Assembly: GCA_041917215.1 (NCBI GenBank)
Contig: JAYRYC010000005.1
Location: 103,687-167,686 of the forward strand
Direction: 5' to 3'
DNA length: 64,000 nucleotides
Origin: Tagaea sp.
Lineage (GTDB): Bacteria; Pseudomonadota; Alphaproteobacteria; CACIAM-22H2
The position numbers and the translations under genes were made by a program. Numbering within the stretch: the stretch's first letter is position 1; every line of letters begins with the position of its first letter. The notes beneath the pieces were generated by a model that saw nothing but the letters and a program-made list of their open reading frames with translations, was not told where the DNA came from and searched no databases. Below, one piece after another: positions 10,177-50,725 of this stretch.

Positions 10177-10662
10177 TTACTGCGCCGCGACCATCGGGAT
10201 CGCTTCGGCCGTTTCGGCCTCCGTCCCGTCGATCACGCCCGCCGTGCCGAGCACGCGGCGCGACACCACGTTCGCCAGCGTCACCGACGACAGATAGAGA
10301 TGGATCTGGTTACCCAGCTCCTCCCACAGATCATGCGTAAAGCAGCGCGCTTTGTTGGCGCGGCAGCCCACGGGCGAACCCGGCGCGCAACGCGTCGCGC
10401 GGATCGGCTCGTCGACCGCGAGGATAATGTCGGAAATGCGCGTCTGATCGCTGGCATGGGCGAGCAGATAACCGCCGCCCGGCCCGCGCACGGAGCGCAC
10501 CAGCCCGCCGCGCCGCAGCTTGGCGAAAAGCTGTTCGAGATAGGAGAGCGAAATCTCCTGACGCTCGGCGATATCGGCCAGCGCCACGGGATTGCCTTGG
10601 CTGGTCGATGCGAGATCGACCATCGCCATCACGGCGTAGCGGCCTTTGGTGGAAAGCTTCAT
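10177..10662 (-). CDS. iscR: Rrf2-family Fe-S-cluster-sensing regulator IscR
   Basis: The protein starts MKLSTKGRYAVMAMVDLA (Rrf2 HTH) and has the three-Cys cluster C-x5-C-x5-C (CAPGSPVGCRANKARC). It is the first regulator gene of the isc array. Confidence 0.85.
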   Translation of the reverse strand: MKLSTKGRYAVMAMVDLASTSQGNPVALADIAERQEISLSYLEQLFAKLRRGGLVRSVRGPGGGYLLAHASDQTRISDIILAVDEPIRATRCAPGSPVGCRANKARCFTHDLWEELGNQIHLYLSSVTLANVVSRRVLGTAGVIDGTEAETAEAIPMVAAQ

Positions 10663-10680
10663 GGGATCAACCTCCCGATC

Positions 10681-11397
10681 TCAAACGCGGTCATTCGCGT
10701 AAACACGCAATGGAGCGGCTTCGCGTTCGTCCAGCGCCTTGCGCTGGGCGGCGACGATGCCTTCGAGCTCGGCCATGCGCGCGCGCAGGATGCCGAGATC
10801 GCCTTCGAATCGTTCGAGCGCGCGGGCGACGGGGTCTTGCACCTCGCCCGTCGTGCCATAGGCGCAGAAATCGTCGTTCTTCGGCCGGCCAACGACCTTC
10901 GCGGGAATGCCCACCACCGTGGCACCCGCCGGCACCGCTTCGAGAACGACGGCGTTGGAACCGACGCGCGCGTTCTTGCCGACCGTGAACGGCCCGAGGA
11001 TTTTGGCACCCGCGCCGACGATCACGCCGTCGTCCAGCGTAGGATGGCGCTTGCCCTTGTCGAGCGACGTGCCGCCGAGCGTGACGCCTTGATAGAGCGT
11101 CACGTCGTCGCCGATCTCCGCCGTCTCGCCAACCACGACACCCATGCCGTGATCGATGAAGAAGCGTTGGCCGATGCGCGCGGCGGGGTGAATTTCGATT
11201 CCGGTCAGGAAGCGCGAGAACACCGCGATCGCACGGGCGACCAGTTTCAGGCCGCGCGTCCAACACCCATGCGCCAGACGGTGCAGCAGCACCGCATGGA
11301 AGCCGGGGTAGCAAAGCACAACCTCCAGCCGCGAACGGGCGGCCGGGTCGCGGGCCAAGATGGCCTCCATATCCGCGCGAATTGCCTTGAAACTCAT
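10681..11397 (-). CDS. cysE: Serine O-acetyltransferase CysE
   Basis: The protein has hexapeptide-repeat left-handed beta-helix sequence ([41 protein letters not shown]) and a SAT N-terminal domain. The ATG at 11397 starts [14 protein letters not shown]. It lies directly upstream of iscR. Confidence 0.85.
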
Positions 11398-11464
11398 TGT
11401 CTTAACCAATTAACATTCGGAACTGCCTCGAAAAAGCGGTATCCAAAAACCTTCCTGGCCCGCC

Positions 11465-11489
11465 ATACCCGAGAAACGCAGTCGGAATT
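11465..11489. promoter_or_regulatory. Candidate type-1 IscR binding site upstream of cysE-iscR
   Basis: ATACCCGAGAAACGCAGTCGGAATT matches about 17 of 25 positions of the E. coli type-1 consensus ATASYYGACTRwwwYAGTCRRSTAT. It lies 68-92 nt upstream of the cysE start, in the only sizeable promoter gap of the array. Confidence 0.3.
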
Positions 11490-11645
11490 TAGGGAGACCG
11501 ACAAAATCGGTCAAGTATGTTTATCCCTTGCCGCCGGAAGCCGAGTCGTCGTTTCGTACAGCCGCAAAACATAAGCAAATCCAACTTTGGGCTCGATCGC
11601 TGCGGATTTGCCAAAACAGTTCACCTCGTGGAGTAGGACCCGGGA

Positions 11646-12488
11646 ATGCCGGATGTGACGATCAACGGTGCCGAAGGCCGGCTGGAGGGCAAGTTCGCGC
11701 CCGCCAGTGCGGGCGACCGCGCACCCATCGCGCTTCTGCTGCATCCCCATCCGCAGCACGGCGGCACGATGCACAACAAGGTCGTGTACACGCTGAACTT
11801 GGCTTTTCAGAAGGCCGGGTTCTCGACCTTGCGCTTCAATTTCCGCGGCGTGGGCCGCAGCCAAGGCAGCTATGGCCGCGGCGAAGGCGAATTGCAGGAC
11901 GCGGCTTCGGCGCTCGATTGGATTCAGCAGAACCTGCCGAATTCGCGCGGCTGCTGGATCGCGGGTTTCTCGTTCGGCGCTTGGATCGGCATGCAGCTGC
12001 TGATGCGCCGTCCGGAGATCGATCGCTTCATCTCCGTCGCCCCGCCCGCCAACATCTTTGATTTCTCGTTTCTGGCGCCCTGCCCCTCGTCGGGCCTGAT
12101 CGTTCAGGGCGACAAGGACGAGATCGTGCCCGAGGAATCGGTGCTCAAGCTTTCCGAGAAATTGGCGAAGCAAAAGGACATCGTCGTCGATTTCCGCGTC
12201 ATCAAGGGGGCAAACCATTTCTTCGCCGACCGGCTCGATAAGCTCGATGCCATGGTCGCGGAATACGCCGCCTCGGCCCTGCCCACGATGCGCGACGCGG
12301 CCCCGCCGCCGCCGGTGATGGCGCCGCCGCCCCCGCCGCAGCCGGAACGCAAGCCGCCGGCGATTTCCCTGCCGCCCGACGCGCCCAGCCGCGCGGAAGC
12401 GAAGAAGGCCGCCGCCGCCAAGGCGAAGCCCAAGGCCGCCGCGCCGAAGGCCGCGGTCAAAAAAGCCGCGCCCAAAGCGAAACGCTGA
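11646..12488 (+). CDS. Small alpha/beta-hydrolase with a C-terminal Pro/Ala/Lys-rich histone-H1-like tail
   Basis: The hydrolase core reads IAGFSFGAW, with the nucleophile elbow G-F-S-F-G. The last 80 residues are low complexity: [19 protein letters not shown]...[29 protein letters not shown]. The tail is in frame up to the stop. Confidence 0.7.
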
Positions 12489-12523
12489 CGGACACGGCCT
12501 CGGCGTGTTATAGCGCCGCCGCC

Positions 12524-13762
12524 ATGACGAAATTCCGCTCCGAATTCCTGCAAGCGGCGCAAGCGCGCGGCTTCATCCACCAGATCACCGACCCCGAAGG
12601 TCTCGACGCGCGCTTGGCGTCGGGCAAGCAGATGGTCGCGTATATCGGGTTCGATGCGACGGCGGACTCGCTGCATGTCGGGCATCTGTTCCAGATCATG
12701 ACGCTGCGCCTCTTTCAGCGCTGCGGCCACCGGCCGCTGGCGTTGATGGGCGGCGGCACGACCAAGATCGGCGATCCCTCGGGCAAGGACGAAGCGCGCA
12801 AGCTGCTGTCCGAAGCCGATATCGCGGCCAACGTCGCCAGCATCAAGCGCAGCTTCGACAATTATCTCGATTTCGGCGAAGGCAAGGCGCTGATGGTCGA
12901 CAACGCCGAATGGCTCGACAAGCTGCTCTACATTCCGCTGCTGCGCGATATCGGCCGCCATTTCTCGGTCAATCGCATGCTGACGATGGATTCCGTCAAG
13001 CTGCGCTTGGAACGCGACCAGCCTTTGTCGTTCCTCGAATTCAACTACATGATTTTGCAGAGCTACGATTTCGTCGAGCTCGCCAAGCGCTACGATTGCG
13101 CCATGCAGATGGGCGGCTCCGACCAATGGGGCAACATCGTCATGGGCGTCGAGCTCGGCCGGCGTGTCGCCGAGAAGCAGCTCTTCGGTTTGACGACGCC
13201 GCTGCTGACCACCGCCTCGGGCGCCAAGATGGGCAAGACCGCCGCCGGTGCGGTGTGGCTCAGCCAGCAGCGCCTGTCGGTCTACGACTACTACCAATAT
13301 TGGCGGAACACCGAAGACGCCGACGTGATCCGCTTCATGAAGCTGTTCACCGATTTGCCGCTCGACGAGATCGAGAAGCTCGCCAAGCTGCAAGGGGCCG
13401 AGATCAACGAGGCGAAGAAGATCCTCGCCTTCGAGACGACGAAATTGTGCCACGGCGAAGCCGCCGCCGCCGAAGCCGCCGAGACCGCGCGCCGCGCATT
13501 CGAGGAAGGCCAATCGGCCGAAGGCTTGCCGACGGTCGAGTTGCCGAAAGCCGAACTCGCCGCCGGGATCGGCGTGCTCGATCTTTTCGTGCGCGCGGGC
13601 CTCGCCGCATCGAAGGGCGAAGCGCGCCGGCTGGTGCAGGGCAAGGGCGCCAAGCTCGACGACGCGATCGTCGAAAGCGACACGGCTGTCGTGAAGCTTG
13701 ACGGCGGCACGGTCAAACTCACCGCCGGCAAAAAGCGCCACGCGCTGGTGAAGGCAGTTTAA
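12524..13762 (+). CDS. tyrS: Tyrosyl-tRNA synthetase
   Basis: The protein has the class-I HIGH-type motif region ([14 protein letters not shown]) and a KMGKT motif (KMSKS equivalent), plus a C-terminal S4-like domain. Confidence 0.9.
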
Positions 13763-37910: not shown

Positions 37911-38113
37911 TGAACACTGTGCGCCGACCGAATGCGCAACCTATGGATCTATGGTGTGCCGCGTAACAAAACGGTCCGGCGCGCCTTGCAAAATGCGAAG
38001 GCGGCGCAATCGAGAACGCGTCCACGATTATTCCACATGGGCACTGGCGGTGTTTCGCGTATAACTCCGATCCCGCAAATTTTACCGAATCTGATGGCAT
38101 TGCGCCGCCGCCG

Positions 38114-39241
38114 ATGACCGACGACCAAGAAGACAAAACCCGCCGTCCCGGCGCCGACGTCGAGAAGTACGATTTGCGGCCGTTGCGCGAGATGCTGCGC
38201 TTGGCCGCCGACGGCGTCGAAGGCCTGTTGATGCACAACGTGCCGGGCCGCGAGAGCACGATCGATCGCGAAATCTTCGACGACATCGCGCGCGCGAAAT
38301 GCTTCCGCTTCAAGGAAGCGACGGGCGCCTTCGCCGACGCGCCGATCCGCTTCGACGCGACGCGCGGCCGGCTCGACGTCGTCACCAAGCTCGACGCGCG
38401 GGACGCCGACAGCGAAATCCAGATCGTGCGTTCGGGCAGCGACGCGATGCTGATGAAGGATACGGATCCGGGATCCGCCTATAACCGCCGCTTGGTCGAA
38501 ATCGTCTCGCAGGTGCTGGGCTTGGGCATCGTCGACGAGGTCGTGTTCGGCCAGACTTTGCCGGAGGCTTCGCTCCTCTATCTGCGCCCGCTGCCCGATC
38601 CCGAGGAAAGCTGCGAACAATTCATCGACCAGATCGTCGGCGCGATCGCGCGCCACAAGCCGCAACCGATCCGCAACAAACAGGCCTTCAACGAGGCCTA
38701 TGCGGGGCTGGTGATGCGGCTCGCGCGCTCGGGCATTCCGCCATCGCGCATGAACCCGATCGACATGCAGCAGACGATCCAGCAGGAAATGCTGCGCGGC
38801 ATGATGAAGGTCGAAATCTGGCGCAAGCTTTGGCGCTGGACGACCGAATGCGAAACGAAGCTTCAGCCGGTGAAGGCGATTCCGGCGGTGCAGTCGGACA
38901 AGGCCTCGTCCCAGCAGATCGCCGATCTCGAAAAGGCGATCAAACGCGCCGCCAAGACGATCGGCGTCCACGTCACCAACGCGAGCCTGCTCTACGAGCG
39001 CGCGGTCGGCGGCGAGAATTTCTACGTCGAGGCGATGCCCGCCATCCTCTATATCCGCGAGGCGCGCCAGACGGTGGAAGAGCTCTACACCATCGCCAAC
39101 GAGTGGTCGGTGCTGTGGACGGCCGTTCCGAAGAACGCCGCGTTGAACGACGTGAAAATGCTGCTGAAGCCCCTGCTCGTTTCGATCAAGGACGTTTTGT
39201 CCCGCCCCCAACCGCGCGAAGCCGTTTTGGGCACAAAATAG
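38114..39241 (+). CDS. Conserved hypothetical protein, tandem paralogue A (375 aa, no recognisable domain)
   Basis: This is a clean ORF with host-like GC3 codon usage and no signal peptide or TM segment. It shares long identical blocks with the next gene: LREMLRLAA-GVEGLLM, CFRFKE-TGAFADAPIRFDA-RGRLDVV, NRRLVE-VSQVLGLGIVDEVVFGQ-LPEASLLYLRPLP-PEESCE-FI, KPQPIRNKQAFNEAYA, NPIDMQ-T-QQEMLRGM-KVEIWRKLWRW, NFYVEAMPAILYIREAR and KDVLSRP. Confidence 0.7.
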   Translation: MTDDQEDKTRRPGADVEKYDLRPLREMLRLAADGVEGLLMHNVPGRESTIDREIFDDIARAKCFRFKEATGAFADAPIRFDATRGRLDVVTKLDARDADSEIQIVRSGSDAMLMKDTDPGSAYNRRLVEIVSQVLGLGIVDEVVFGQTLPEASLLYLRPLPDPEESCEQFIDQIVGAIARHKPQPIRNKQAFNEAYAGLVMRLARSGIPPSRMNPIDMQQTIQQEMLRGMMKVEIWRKLWRWTTECETKLQPVKAIPAVQSDKASSQQIADLEKAIKRAAKTIGVHVTNASLLYERAVGGENFYVEAMPAILYIREARQTVEELYTIANEWSVLWTAVPKNAALNDVKMLLKPLLVSIKDVLSRPQPREAVLGTK

Positions 39242-39315
39242 CCCGCGTCAAAATAATAACCGTAAAATTTTCGGATTAGCTTGCTGGGTGGAACACCCCT
39301 TGCTACCTAATCCCC

Positions 39316-40449
39316 ATGGCGATCCAGGGTAACGATCCGCGCCGGCCGGGCGAGGATATCGACAAATACGACGATCGCGGCTTGCGCGAGATGCTGCGCT
39401 TGGCCGCCGAGGGCGTCGAAGGCCTGTTGATGCGCCACGTGCCCGGCAAGGAAAGCGATATCGACCGCGAGATTTTCGAGGATATCGGGCGCAGCGGCTG
39501 CTTCCGTTTCAAGGAATCGACCGGCGCCTTCGCCGACGCGCCGATCCGCTTCGACGCCGAGCGCGGCCGTCTGGACGTGGTGATGAACCTGAACCAGACC
39601 GGCCAGGAGACGGGCATCCAATTCGTGCGCTCGGGCTCCGACGCGTCGCTGATGCGCGATTACGATCCGGGCTCCGACTACAACCGCCGCCTCGTCGAGC
39701 TCGTCTCGCAGGTGCTGGGCCTGGGCATCGTCGACGAAGTCGTGTTCGGCCAGAAGCTGCCCGAGGCCTCGCTCCTCTATCTGCGTCCGCTGCCCCAGCC
39801 CGAGGAGAGCTGCGAGCGCTTCATCAACGACATCGTCACCGCGATCGGCAACTACAAGCCCCAGCCGATCCGCAACAAGCAGGCCTTCAACGAAGCCTAT
39901 GCGCGCCTCGTGCAGCGCCTGGCCAAATCGGGCGTGCCGCCGTCGCGCCTCAACCCCATCGACATGCAGCACACGCTGCAGCAGGAAATGCTGCGCGGCA
40001 TGGTGAAGGTGGAGATCTGGCGCAAGCTCTGGCGCTGGGTGATCGATTGCGCGGTGAAGGTGCAGGACCTGCGGCCCATTCCGGCGATCCTGTCGGATAA
40101 GCCGCTCTCGGCCCAAGTGCGCGACCTGGAAGACGCGTTGAAGCGCGCGGGCAAGATCATCGGCACGCATGTCTACAACGCCAGCATGCTCTACGACCGC
40201 GCGGTGAAGGGCATCAATTTCTACGTCGAGGCGATGCCCGCGATCCTTTACATCCGCGAAGCGCGGCCGGTGGTCGAGGAGATCTACGTCAAGGTCAACG
40301 GCTGGTCGGCCGCCTGGACGCATATGCCCAAGACAGCGTCGATCGGCGAAGCGACCAATCTTCTGGCCCCCACGATGGCGGGCGTGAAGGACGTGCTGTC
40401 GCGCCCCGCCCCGCGCGCGATCGGGGCCCCAGCCGGCGCGAAAAACTAG
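39316..40449 (+). CDS. Conserved hypothetical protein, tandem paralogue B (377 aa)
   Basis: It is collinear with paralogue A along its whole length, with roughly two-thirds or more identity by eye. A 74-nt spacer separates the two genes. Both upstream regions carry an AAATTTT-then-CCGAAT/CGGATT motif about 45-55 nt before the ATG. Confidence 0.7.
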   Translation: MAIQGNDPRRPGEDIDKYDDRGLREMLRLAAEGVEGLLMRHVPGKESDIDREIFEDIGRSGCFRFKESTGAFADAPIRFDAERGRLDVVMNLNQTGQETGIQFVRSGSDASLMRDYDPGSDYNRRLVELVSQVLGLGIVDEVVFGQKLPEASLLYLRPLPQPEESCERFINDIVTAIGNYKPQPIRNKQAFNEAYARLVQRLAKSGVPPSRLNPIDMQHTLQQEMLRGMVKVEIWRKLWRWVIDCAVKVQDLRPIPAILSDKPLSAQVRDLEDALKRAGKIIGTHVYNASMLYDRAVKGINFYVEAMPAILYIREARPVVEEIYVKVNGWSAAWTHMPKTASIGEATNLLAPTMAGVKDVLSRPAPRAIGAPAGAKN

Positions 40450-48867: not shown

Positions 48868-48943
48868 GCCGAAATCCGAAACCCTCTTTCAGCCCGATGA
48901 TATGGCATCCGGGCGGGGCGAATAAAGGGGCTGGTGCCGCCAA

Positions 48944-48985
48944 AAGAAAAACCCGGCCGCCCTTGCGGGCGACCGGGTCTTTGCC
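48944..48985 (-). terminator. Rho-independent terminator downstream of the phasin gene
   Basis: On the minus strand the stem is CCCGGTCGCC-cgcaag-GGCGGCCGGG, followed by TTTTTCTTTT. Confidence 0.55.
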
Positions 48986-49008
48986 GGCTTGAAGCGTCGA
49001 AGGGGCTT

Positions 49009-49461
49009 TTAGGCCGCCAGCGCGGGCTTCAGCATCTTTTCGACCGCGACGTTGACGCGGGCGTTGATCGGCTCGAGCGCCTCGTTCGTCACCTTGATCG
49101 AGGCTTCCGAGACCTTCGTGCCTTCGGCGACGAACTTGTCGAACGTCGTCTTGGCGAAATCGGTCTGCAGGTCGACCGCTTCCTTCAGCGTCTTGGCGCC
49201 GAGCATCGCCTTGGCGACGTTGGCCGAAGCCTCGAACGTCTCCTGGGCGAACGCGGCCCACGACTTCGACACCGATTCCACGCCCTTGGCGTAGGTGGTC
49301 GAGGCCACGACGAACGCGTCGAGGTTTTCCTTGTTGAACTTGGCGGCGTCTTCATACGCCTTCATCGTCTGGGCCGAGGCCTTTTCGACCTGGGCCTTGG
49401 CGTCGCCGAAATACTTGTCGAACGACTTGATGTCGAAGAGCGCTTTGAACTGGTCGGTCAT
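49009..49461 (-). CDS. Phasin (PHA-granule protein; Mms16/ApdA-like alphaproteobacterial phasin)
   Basis: The 150-aa core MTDQFKALFDIKSFDKYFGDAKAQVEKASAQ... has strong GC3 bias and AGGAA 9 nt upstream. An in-frame upstream ATG at 49662 would add a Lys/Ala/Pro-rich 67-aa extension, but the codon usage there is atypical. Confidence 0.7.
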   Translation of the reverse strand: MTDQFKALFDIKSFDKYFGDAKAQVEKASAQTMKAYEDAAKFNKENLDAFVVASTTYAKGVESVSKSWAAFAQETFEASANVAKAMLGAKTLKEAVDLQTDFAKTTFDKFVAEGTKVSEASIKVTNEALEPINARVNVAVEKMLKPALAA

Positions 49462-49863
49462 GGCGAATGTTCCTTTGACGAACTGTTCCCCGATGGCCGG
49501 GGCTGGGACGGGTTTGGCCGCAGGCGCCGCCGGAGCGGCCGCGACTTGGACGGGAGGAAGGCTGGGCTTCGCGGCCGGGACGGGCTTGGCAGCGGCCGCA
49601 ACGGCTTGGGCCGACGCCTTCGGCGCGGCTTTGCTCGGTTGCTTTGACTTGCCTTTGCCCATCTTGGTCGCCTTCGCTTCGTCGTCCTCGAGTGGGGTTG
49701 TGCCGCTTTGTGCAGCGCAACATGACGTGAATATAGCCACTCGCGCGCGAGGGTCAAGGGAGTTTTGTGCGGCGCAGCAAAAATCCCTCGCACCGCAACA
49801 TAAACCCTTGCGGCGTCGAGGGATTTTTTTAGGACCGAATACGCCTCAGCGGTATTCCGCTGA

Positions 49864-50550
49864 TCAGAACGGCGTCAGGATGTTCCCGAGCTCGCCCTTG
49901 CGCACGATCATTTCGAAATTCCGGTCGGGCCCCAGATCGCCGGTGCGCCGGCTGATATAGGCGCCATAGGTGTTGGCGAAGGGTTTGGCGGGCGGAATGC
50001 TGGTCGTGTCGTGGCTGTAGAGGAGCTGCGGGAAACGCAAGGCGGCGAAGCCCGGCGTCTGGTTGACCCAGGCGTTGAAATGGAATTTGCCGCCCGCGCA
50101 GGCGCTGACCGCCCAATAGAAATCGTAGGATTGCAGCCGCAGGCCTTCCTGCGCCGGGGCGCCGAAACCGTCGGCCTCGACCTGGCGGATCAAGGCGAGA
50201 TAGTCGGCGCGGTTCAGTTCGGCCTCGGCCTGGCGTTTGATGCCTTCGGGCCGGATCGGCCAGGACAGCGGGAACTCGAAGACCCGGATTTCCGAGTTGC
50301 CGACATTGACGTTCAATTTTCCGCCATCGCCGGTCTGAACCAGGTCGTAGCTGCGGACTTGTTCGTCGAATACGGCGTTATAGACGAAGCGATAGCGCGC
50401 GGGCGCATCGGCCGTGCAGGCGGCTTTGATGTCGTTTCCGGCGAGGTAGGTGAAGTAGGACAGCCCGCCGACGACGGGGGTGTGAACCCGCGACGTGTCG
50501 GCGCAAGCGGCCAACGCCAAGGCAATCCCCAACAGCGCGACGCGTTTCAT
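49864..50550 (-). CDS. Lipoprotein of unknown function
   Basis: The inner ATG at 50550 has a GAGGAG Shine-Dalgarno. The lipobox is MKRVALLGIALALAACAD. Confidence 0.6.
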   Translation of the reverse strand: MKRVALLGIALALAACADTSRVHTPVVGGLSYFTYLAGNDIKAACTADAPARYRFVYNAVFDEQVRSYDLVQTGDGGKLNVNVGNSEIRVFEFPLSWPIRPEGIKRQAEAELNRADYLALIRQVEADGFGAPAQEGLRLQSYDFYWAVSACAGGKFHFNAWVNQTPGFAALRFPQLLYSHDTTSIPPAKPFANTYGAYISRRTGDLGPDRNFEMIVRKGELGNILTPF

Positions 50551-50725
50551 GTGTCTCCTCGATTCGAGTCGAATGTACGACGCCAATGGCATGGAATCGC
50601 GGTTTTTTATGGACATCAAGATTCGCTCTCGATTATCGTTCCGACTGCAACGAATTGAAACATTCGTCGAGTCGCACCCTCCAGACTCGGGCCACGAAAA
50701 CCACTCACTTCAGGAATCTTTTCGC

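Follow-up and report, generated by a model that had tools for sequence, protein, structure and literature searches.

A lysine/alanine-rich tail on an Atu1826-like hydrolase and a probably translated basic extension on a putatively PhaR-controlled phasin in Tagaea sp.

In a stretch of 64,000 nucleotides from Tagaea sp. (Alphaproteobacteria; contig JAYRYC010000005.1, positions 103,687 to 167,686), referred to as the window in the following, two proteins are associated with histone-like tracts of alanine, lysine and proline (A/K/P): a small alpha/beta hydrolase at its C-terminus and a phasin at its N-terminus. The locus raises the question of what such tracts do on an enzyme and on a granule protein, and whether the phasin tract is translated at all. 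A first-pass annotation, made from the sequence alone, had compared both with the tails of PhaF, PhaM and AlgP and had suggested that the hydrolase is a granule- or nucleoid-tethered esterase, for example a small intracellular polyhydroxyalkanoate (PHA) depolymerase. Our analysis assigns the hydrolase to the Atu1826-like family. The best overall explanation, which we consider reasonably probable as a whole, combines a hydrolase tail that would be tethered to a polyanion with a putatively PhaR-controlled phasin gene that has a coding extension and probably gives rise to two isoforms.

Both tracts are present and lie far beyond chance. The richest 30-residue window of the hydrolase tail consists of A/K/P to 93% (33% lysine), and a stretch of 30 residues with 28 of these three is expected about 1e-11 times from the composition of the approximately 40 likely genes of the window. 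Among about 42 open reading frames (ORFs) with a gene-like GC content at third codon positions (GC3), the hydrolase tail and the phasin extension are the only lysine-rich tracts of this kind. The hydrolase is composed of the following parts:

11646..12488, plus strand: hydrolase gene, 280 codons and a stop, with AGGA located 7 nt upstream of the ATG
11646..12287, plus strand: catalytic alpha/beta-hydrolase domain, residues 1-214, with an Atu1826-like lidless fold
12288..12392, plus strand: proline-rich spacer, residues 215-249 (35 amino acids), predicted as coil with a pLDDT (predicted local distance difference test score) of 54-64
12393..12485, plus strand: polycationic A/K/P segment, residues 250-280 (31 amino acids), net charge +10

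Residues 1-208 match the Pfam families Abhydrolase_1, Hydrolase_4, Peptidase_S15 and DLH. Among solved structures, Atu1826 of Agrobacterium tumefaciens (PDB 2i3d; phmmer E-value 1.5e-84 over the same residues) comes closest, with 58-60% identity in the catalytic domain. An AlphaFold (AF2) model based on 119 homologs reaches a pLDDT of about 90 in the domain and shows helices and strands up to residue 214, the last helix comprising residues 197-214. By Foldseek, this model corresponds to 2i3d with 58% identity and a TM-score of 0.88 (normalised to the target), followed by 3trd from Coxiella and XC6422 from Xanthomonas (2fuk), which its depositors call a serine hydrolase without a lid. The nucleophile motif G107-F-S109-F-G111 and His191, situated in N-H-F-F, are invariant in alignments of 19 and of 119 sequences. 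Asp158, which is probably the acid residue, is invariant in the smaller and nearly so in the larger alignment, and the homolog alignments show no or almost no variation in the Met-Pro N-terminus. In Atu1826 the listed nucleophile is Ser108 (PMC7034887). Similarity of the catalytic domain, the Ser, His and acid residues and an orthologous genome position were all found, and the protein is an ortholog of the Atu1826-like lidless Ser-Asp-His hydrolases (COG2945; SCOP 'Atu1826-like'). In the literature searched, no paper was found that gives a function to this family, and the mention of Atu1826 is structural only. An assignment to the type IV pili motility protein SglT was rejected, as the model NF058544 scores 89.4 bits against an equivalog cut-off of 300 and describes a related family, not the same protein. 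An antisense ORF of 545 amino acids (12104-13741), located opposite the tail and tyrS, was dismissed as an artefact of GC-rich DNA, with the GC3 signal and the homology both found on the sense frames.

Beyond the family match follows a tail of 72 residues (209-280), with 41 proline-rich residues and then 31 residues rich in lysine and alanine (15 Ala, 10 Lys, 3 Pro, 1 Arg and 1 Glu). This agrees in order with the first-pass description, in which the tail had been counted as 80 residues. Residues 215-280 are coil in the AF2 model and are predicted to be disordered. The GC content of the tail at the three codon positions (0.75/0.68/0.90) is a coding-like pattern in this DNA of 65% GC. No exact KPAA, AAKP or PAKKA is found in the tail, and PKAA, AAPK and APKA occur twice each. 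On the DNA level there is a CCG-type run in the spacer (12303-12344) and one weak, imperfect 15-nt repeat (12405-12454); repeats of both kinds, a CCG run and units of about 15 nt, are also present in the related locus L009. A protein search with the tail only (66 residues) delivered 1526 candidates with shared words, none of which scored as a match, and no other family with the same tail. The spacer run encodes PPPP and PPPPP directly after the catalytic domain, at which place relatives have 9-11 prolines (6640-6672 in L009). Runs of consecutive prolines stall ribosomes in the absence of elongation factor P (EF-P), and given these runs the synthesis of the hydrolase tail may depend on EF-P.

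The distribution of the tail was followed in an ortholog survey of 80 species-level genome loci, to which metagenome relatives were added separately. A long tail was found in only five of the 80 loci, namely in the window's species and in four metagenome-assembled genomes (MAGs) of Tagaea or Rhodospirillales (64-76 residues, net charge +11 to +13). With the metagenome relatives included, the long tail of the Tagaea-like clade comprises 64-91 residues with a net charge of +11 to +16, and over all relatives compared its length varies from 64 to 109 residues. The next relatives have 20-36 tail residues rich in KEKEK and PAKP, and the remaining orthologs end in a C-terminus with a median of 15 residues and a net charge of +1, some of them being acidic. 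All close relatives (275-298 residues, 82-88% identical in the domain) have a proline-rich and then Lys/Ala-rich tail of differing sequence; a lack of the tail in close relatives, which the first-pass annotation had named as speaking against its proposal, was not observed. Several properties are kept within the clade: the order of proline and then basic residues, a proline run (4-5 in the window, 9-11 in relatives), a mid-tail motif [ED][RK]K.P...LPP...[SA]R located in the spacer, a basic A/K/P part with a net charge of +8 to +11 and a final KR or KK. The ratio of non-synonymous to synonymous substitutions (dN/dS) within the clade is 0.02-0.11 for the core and 0.22-0.54 for the tail. Judged by these comparisons, the tail is a clade-specific addition, whose order from proline to basic has been kept while the sequence changed. 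It likely grew out of the short C-terminus of the family by in-frame slippage or repeat expansion, since a CCG run, 15-nt repeats and variants differing by whole AKPAS units are seen. These variants are near-identical homologs of the hydrolase in databases (P0012-P0019; 286, 289, 291 and 293 residues) that differ only in the number of AKPAS units, which corresponds to copy-number variation of a 15-nt repeat among closely related populations.

What could such a tail do? By analogy with known basic tails, it would most likely act as a non-specific electrostatic tether, with nucleoid DNA, RNA or polyphosphate as the polyanion bound. The stiff proline-rich spacer of about 35 residues would keep the lidless catalytic domain away from the bound polycationic anchor, and the tail would determine where the hydrolase acts, not what is hydrolysed. 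Several observations speak against this proposal. The basic segment is short, with its 31 residues and no exact KPAA or AAKP, and the histone-like comparison holds for composition only. The tail evolves fast, the dN/dS reaching about 0.8 in comparisons of the window with the sister group, which align poorly, and because most orthologs lack it and some of these end in an acidic tail, it may be dispensable. The polyanion as partner is a guess drawn from analogy. A hydrolase tail without function, arisen by near-neutral low-complexity growth through replication slippage at a GC-rich gene end and tolerated by the enzyme, would fit the DNA repeats, the variable length with copy-number variants among near-identical proteins, the weak constraint and the many tail-less orthologs. 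Against such a neutral origin stand the net charge of +11 to +16, held in six diverged lineages, the persistence of the Pro-then-basic order, the mid-tail motif and the final KR/KK, the within-clade dN/dS below 1, and the occurrence of such tracts in merely two of the approximately 42 genes, which argues against a general habit of the genome at the 64-kb scale. We regard a functionless tail as unlikely, although it is the main rival to the proposed tether. The conserved proline motif in mid-tail could also point to a protein partner bound via a KK.PSPLPP-like motif, or the tail could be anchored to the inner face of the cytoplasmic membrane via anionic lipids; proline-rich C-terminal extensions mediate membrane-complex association in other alphaproteobacteria (CrtA, PMC13488962). 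The CrtA extension of Cereibacter was rejected as a close parallel, being proline-rich and then glycine-rich, not lysine-rich, and is a loose analogy only. A membrane or partner role is very improbable, because hydrophobic or aromatic residues, by which the basic segment could insert into a membrane, are absent from it, and the gene context reveals no evident partner. Irrespective of its role, an A/K/P tail on an ordinary small serine hydrolase offers a natural tail-plus/tail-minus series for studying the effect of a tail on an enzyme.

The gene context of the hydrolase is well conserved. Its neighbours are cysE, a regulator of the Rrf2/IscR type and cysteine desulfurases (iscS) on the opposite strand, and tyrS downstream. 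In the 80 species-level loci, cysE is located divergently upstream in 70 of 77 cases, the Rrf2 gene in 64 of 77, and tyrS is found downstream in 49 of 72. The arrangement of cysE, isc genes and tyrS is kept across Rhodospirillales in relatives with and without tail. The divergent pairing is visible in the window (10177-11409, minus strand, and 11646-13762, plus strand) as well as in the surveyed loci of Rhodospirillales and related groups (L014-L093), with anmK sometimes found downstream besides tyrS. This context hints at a link of the hydrolase to cysteine, O-acetylserine or Fe-S metabolism, and the firm pairing with cysE, iscR and iscS is a lead to the substrate of the family.

For the hydrolase as a small intracellular PHA depolymerase, or as an esterase of 3-hydroxybutyrate oligomers, with the tail holding it on polyhydroxybutyrate (PHB) granules or bridging granule and nucleoid, three points can be named: the 64-kb window also encodes a phasin with a comparable tract, the model NF050089 for intracellular short-chain-length PHA depolymerases gives a faint match (E-value 5e-4), and the granule proteins PhaF and PhaM have basic tails (PMC5658603). 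However, the NF050089 match amounts to 19.2 bits, the cut-off being 300, and there is no single stretch that passes by itself. The high identity to Atu1826 and the shared cysE-isc-tyrS locus of orthologs with or without tail also contradict a depolymerase, and no PHB depolymerase appeared among the top 50 fold matches by Foldseek. In Pfam scans of 20 other ORFs of the window, no PHA synthase, depolymerase or PhaR was found. The PhaR-type motif YGCRNYGCR is absent from the 236-bp region upstream of the hydrolase (11410-11645), compared with three boxes at the phasin; this is weak evidence, as the core is not enriched window-wide. For the granule hydrolases A0671 and B1632 of R. eutropha, no literature match was found. 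In PhaF and PhaM, the histone-like C-terminus binds DNA, not PHB, and the N-terminus holds the granule (PMC13052382, PMC5658603). Because granule binding thus sits in another part of these proteins, a basic tail would argue for a polyanion and not for PHB as its target. Altogether, the depolymerase suggested in the first-pass annotation is highly improbable, and the preferred reading is that of an Atu1826 ortholog with a polyanion-binding tail.

The hydrolase tail alone is of modest interest; the phasin part, in turn, is directly testable. The relevant elements of the phasin locus, all on the minus strand, are:

49009..49662, minus strand: phasin gene, long form, 217 codons and a stop, ATG at 49662 with GAAGG 8 nt upstream; Phasin_2 family
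49462..49662, minus strand: N-terminal extension, residues 1-67, net charge +8, predicted to be disordered; a polybasic head MGKGKSKQPSKAAPK precedes an A/P-rich spacer in which AAKP occurs three times
49009..49461, minus strand: phasin core with the helical Phasin_2 domain, at the same time the candidate short isoform; read from the inner ATG at 49461, it has 150 codons and a stop
49471..49476, minus strand: candidate internal Shine-Dalgarno sequence AAAGGA (encoding Lys-Gly), 9 nt before the inner ATG
49730..49757, minus strand: sigma-70-type promoter TTGACC-N16-TATATT; the strand has no second site of this type within 48900-49900
49789-49797, 49768-49776 and 49711-49719, minus strand: three putative PhaR-type boxes (core YGCRNYGCR) by motif match, all within 87 bp, two just upstream of the -35 and one after the -10 element

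The phasin scores 76.9 bits with PF09361 (Phasin_2; cut-off 24.9) and 52 bits with TIGR01841 (cut-off 30.2). The PhaF/PhaI-type phasin domain gave no match; only models of the Phasin_2 type score. In the AlphaFold prediction, residues 1-69 are coil with a pLDDT of about 30 and residues 70-216 are helical. The extension starts in frame from the ATG at 49662 with MGKGKSKQPSK and consists of A/K/P to 63% (13% lysine).

Several lines of evidence suggest that the extension is coding. Homologs of 217 amino acids begin at the position of the outer ATG. An extension of 40 residues or more is present in 64 of the 87 homologs aligned; it is always net positive (median +8) and starts with M[GA]K.K.K, and the MGKxKxK start is conserved across 58-100% identity. 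The extensions comprise 59-88 codons, always in frame, with the frame kept through insertions and deletions. Synonymous changes exceed non-synonymous ones (dN/dS 0.27-0.78; Fisher p 0.017 and 0.0009). In the related loci L012 and L094, the other two frames carry stops and the phasin frame is free of them. The outer ATG is preceded by a Shine-Dalgarno-like sequence across loci (GAAGG, GGAGA or GGAAG), and the promoter, the PhaR boxes and their short distance to the outer ATG are conserved in four diverged loci (L011, L012, L013 and L094). Within the window, the core YGCRNYGCR is not enriched (132 found versus 176 expected), and it is its placement and conservation at the phasin promoter that are informative. 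This core is the PhaR motif, and a similar arrangement is known from phaP1, phaP2 and SMa1961 of S. meliloti (PMC12542648). Judged by these promoter palindromes, the phasin gene is putatively under the control of PhaR; no phaR gene was seen in the 64-kb window.

A GTG at 49740, given as a mechanical ORF start, was rejected as the start of the phasin, as it lies inside the promoter/operator and the 26 residues it would add are not conserved as protein. The operator ATGTTGCGCTGCAC, when read in frame, leads to miscalled phasin N-termini in databases, beginning with MLRC or MLHC (e.g. MLRCT..., MLHCS...). The recurring 'MLRC...' entries are in this way explained as an artefact, a PhaR operator read in frame.

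If only the inner ATG were used, the 201 nt upstream would be an untranslated leader that is open in frame by chance. The invariant inner Met with its conserved internal Shine-Dalgarno sequence would fit this, and so would the 150-amino-acid length of some database entries and the fact that GC-rich DNA often contains open frames: in L011 as in the window, no stops interrupt the other two frames either. The codon usage of the extension is indeed atypical, as the first-pass annotation had described, with a GC3 of 0.73 versus 0.91 in the core and a Lys AAA:AAG ratio of 4:5 versus 1:18. However, a chance frame does not explain the Shine-Dalgarno-like site of the outer ATG, the conserved MGKxKxK start, the strict maintenance of the frame, the synonymous excess or the constant short distance from promoter and PhaR boxes to the outer ATG. 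Exclusive use of the inner ATG is accordingly improbable, and translation of the extension is very probable. Two points against a translated basic extension should be mentioned besides the weak codon bias: the low lysine content of 13%, and the set of extended homologs, which is partly shaped by gene callers preferring long ORFs. On these comparisons, the start codon left open in the first-pass annotation is settled in favour of a long form with the high, though not complete, confidence just given. The alternative of outer or inner start is probably not an either/or, with the internal Shine-Dalgarno sequence being conserved.

The Shine-Dalgarno-like AGGA that had been noticed before the inner ATG is present and belongs to a conserved Lys-Gly pair, three to four residues before the invariant inner Met. 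In eight diverged loci this pair is encoded by AAA-GGA (in a single case AAA-GGG), located 6-9 nt upstream of the inner ATG. Within the cores of these eight genes, 128 of 131 lysines are encoded by AAG, and GGA does not occur; among the window's own genes GGA accounts for 3% of glycine codons and AAA for 22% of lysine codons. With each locus's own codon usage, the joint log10 P of AAA-GGA/GGG is about -18.5, a value that is overstated for related loci, even though synonymous sites still differ by 30-70%. Lys-Gly might also be kept for a reason at the protein level, which would weaken the case for an internal start. The simplest reading of this pattern is that AAAGGA at 49476-49471 is a conserved internal Shine-Dalgarno sequence for the ATG at 49461. 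Because AAA-GGA/GGG is kept before the inner ATG against the AAG/GGC usage, both starts are probably used, yielding one isoform of 217 and one of 150 residues. The weak codon bias seen in the extension is compatible with initiation by most ribosomes at the inner ATG and by a smaller number at the outer one.

For the two isoforms, different roles can be proposed. The long one would link granules to a polyanion such as the nucleoid, similar to PhaF and PhaM with an inverted domain order, and the short one would serve as a plain granule coat. That one PhaR-controlled mRNA delivers a minor, tethering long phasin and a major, coating short phasin is a tentative proposal, which we consider possible rather than established. 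If true, this phasin subfamily of the Rhodospirillales would be the functional equivalent of PhaF, PhaM and PhaH that has so far been missing, and the ratio of the two starts would set the firmness of granule attachment. If both forms exist, this would be a simple mechanism for mixing tethering and coating phasins and would provide a candidate granule-positioning factor in Rhodospirillales. To our knowledge, no such factor has been described in this order.

Some further observations concern the surroundings. Directly upstream of the phasin lies an ORF of approximately 228-251 residues (49864-50619, minus strand) that begins like a lipoprotein (MKRVALLGIALALAAC) and matches no Pfam family. In all four related loci examined, the same place, between a D-Ala-D-Ala carboxypeptidase gene and the group of phasin, clpS and clpA, is occupied by a gene of 228-270 residues that likewise has no Pfam match. 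A phasin 96% identical to that of the window (P0129) is labelled as belonging to a Sphingopyxis MAG, whereas another close homolog (P0142) and the orthologs of the hydrolase indicate Tagaea or Rhodospirillales; the source label in the public record is probably a binning error. The 20 other ORFs scanned have housekeeping functions, e.g. RNase E, an amidase, an aminotransferase and carbamoyl-phosphate synthase, or no Pfam match. Two adjacent gene-like ORFs on the plus strand (37967-39241 and 39280-40449; 424 and 389 residues) have a high GC3 and no Pfam match at an E-value of 1e-5.

The comparison with known systems places both proteins. The window hydrolase shares the G-x-S-x-G nucleophile, the His, the Asp and the lidless fold with Atu1826, and differs from the Atu1826-like orthologs, most of which have no tail among the 80 loci, by its disordered Pro/A/K tail of 66-72 residues. 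The likeness of its tail to PhaF, PhaM and AlgP, as first suggested, holds in composition, to which the predicted disorder and the basic charge can be added. PhaF tails contain 9-22 repeats and AlgP about 30-54, whereas the hydrolase tail has no exact one. AlgP of Pseudomonas aeruginosa, whose KPAA repeats are of the same type of composition, acts at polyphosphate granules and at the nucleoid/DNA (PMC11894788), and such tails can accordingly target polyphosphate as well as DNA. In AlgP the repeats are part of a coiled-coil protein (the counts differ between PMC12818456 and PMC11894788), whereas 31 residues are attached to an enzyme here. A further parallel is found in the Ku and Hlp proteins of Mycobacterium smegmatis, conserved proteins of a GC-rich genome that, like the hydrolase, have gained a lysine-rich, low-complexity C-terminal tail of the PAKKA type in some lineages only; the lineage-specific PAKKA tail of Ku alters its DNA binding (PMC3553676). 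Ku and Hlp, however, already act on DNA, whereas no connection of the hydrolase with nucleic acids is known. As a low-complexity basic tail, that of the hydrolase belongs to a known type, of which it is a clade-specific variant carried by an Atu1826-like enzyme.

The phasin resembles PhaF of Pseudomonas in that a disordered, basic A/K/P-rich region is fused to a phasin domain that binds granules. Both DNA and RNA are targets of PhaF tails (PMC5658603, PMC12818456), in P. aeruginosa including specific mRNAs (PMC12818456). In PhaF the basic part is C-terminal and built of AAKP/KPAA repeats, whereas that of the window phasin is N-terminal, with three AAKP motifs that are not in tandem, a much lower lysine density (13%) and a domain of the Phasin_2 and not the PhaF/PhaI type. 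A probable second, tail-less isoform is a further difference from PhaF. PhaM of Ralstonia eutropha and PhaH of Caulobacter crescentus are tethers between granule and nucleoid, which is the role proposed for the long phasin isoform; both bind DNA with the C-terminus, PhaH by a helix-hairpin-helix domain (PMC13052382), in contrast to the N-terminal basic part of the window phasin. On the level of regulation, the arrangement of YGCRNYGCR around the -35 and after the -10 element corresponds to that at phaP1 and phaP2 of S. meliloti, where PhaR is also named AniA (PMC12542648). The window phasin is no member of the PhaF, PhaM or PhaH families; the likeness is one of logic, a granule binder combined with a polyanion binder.

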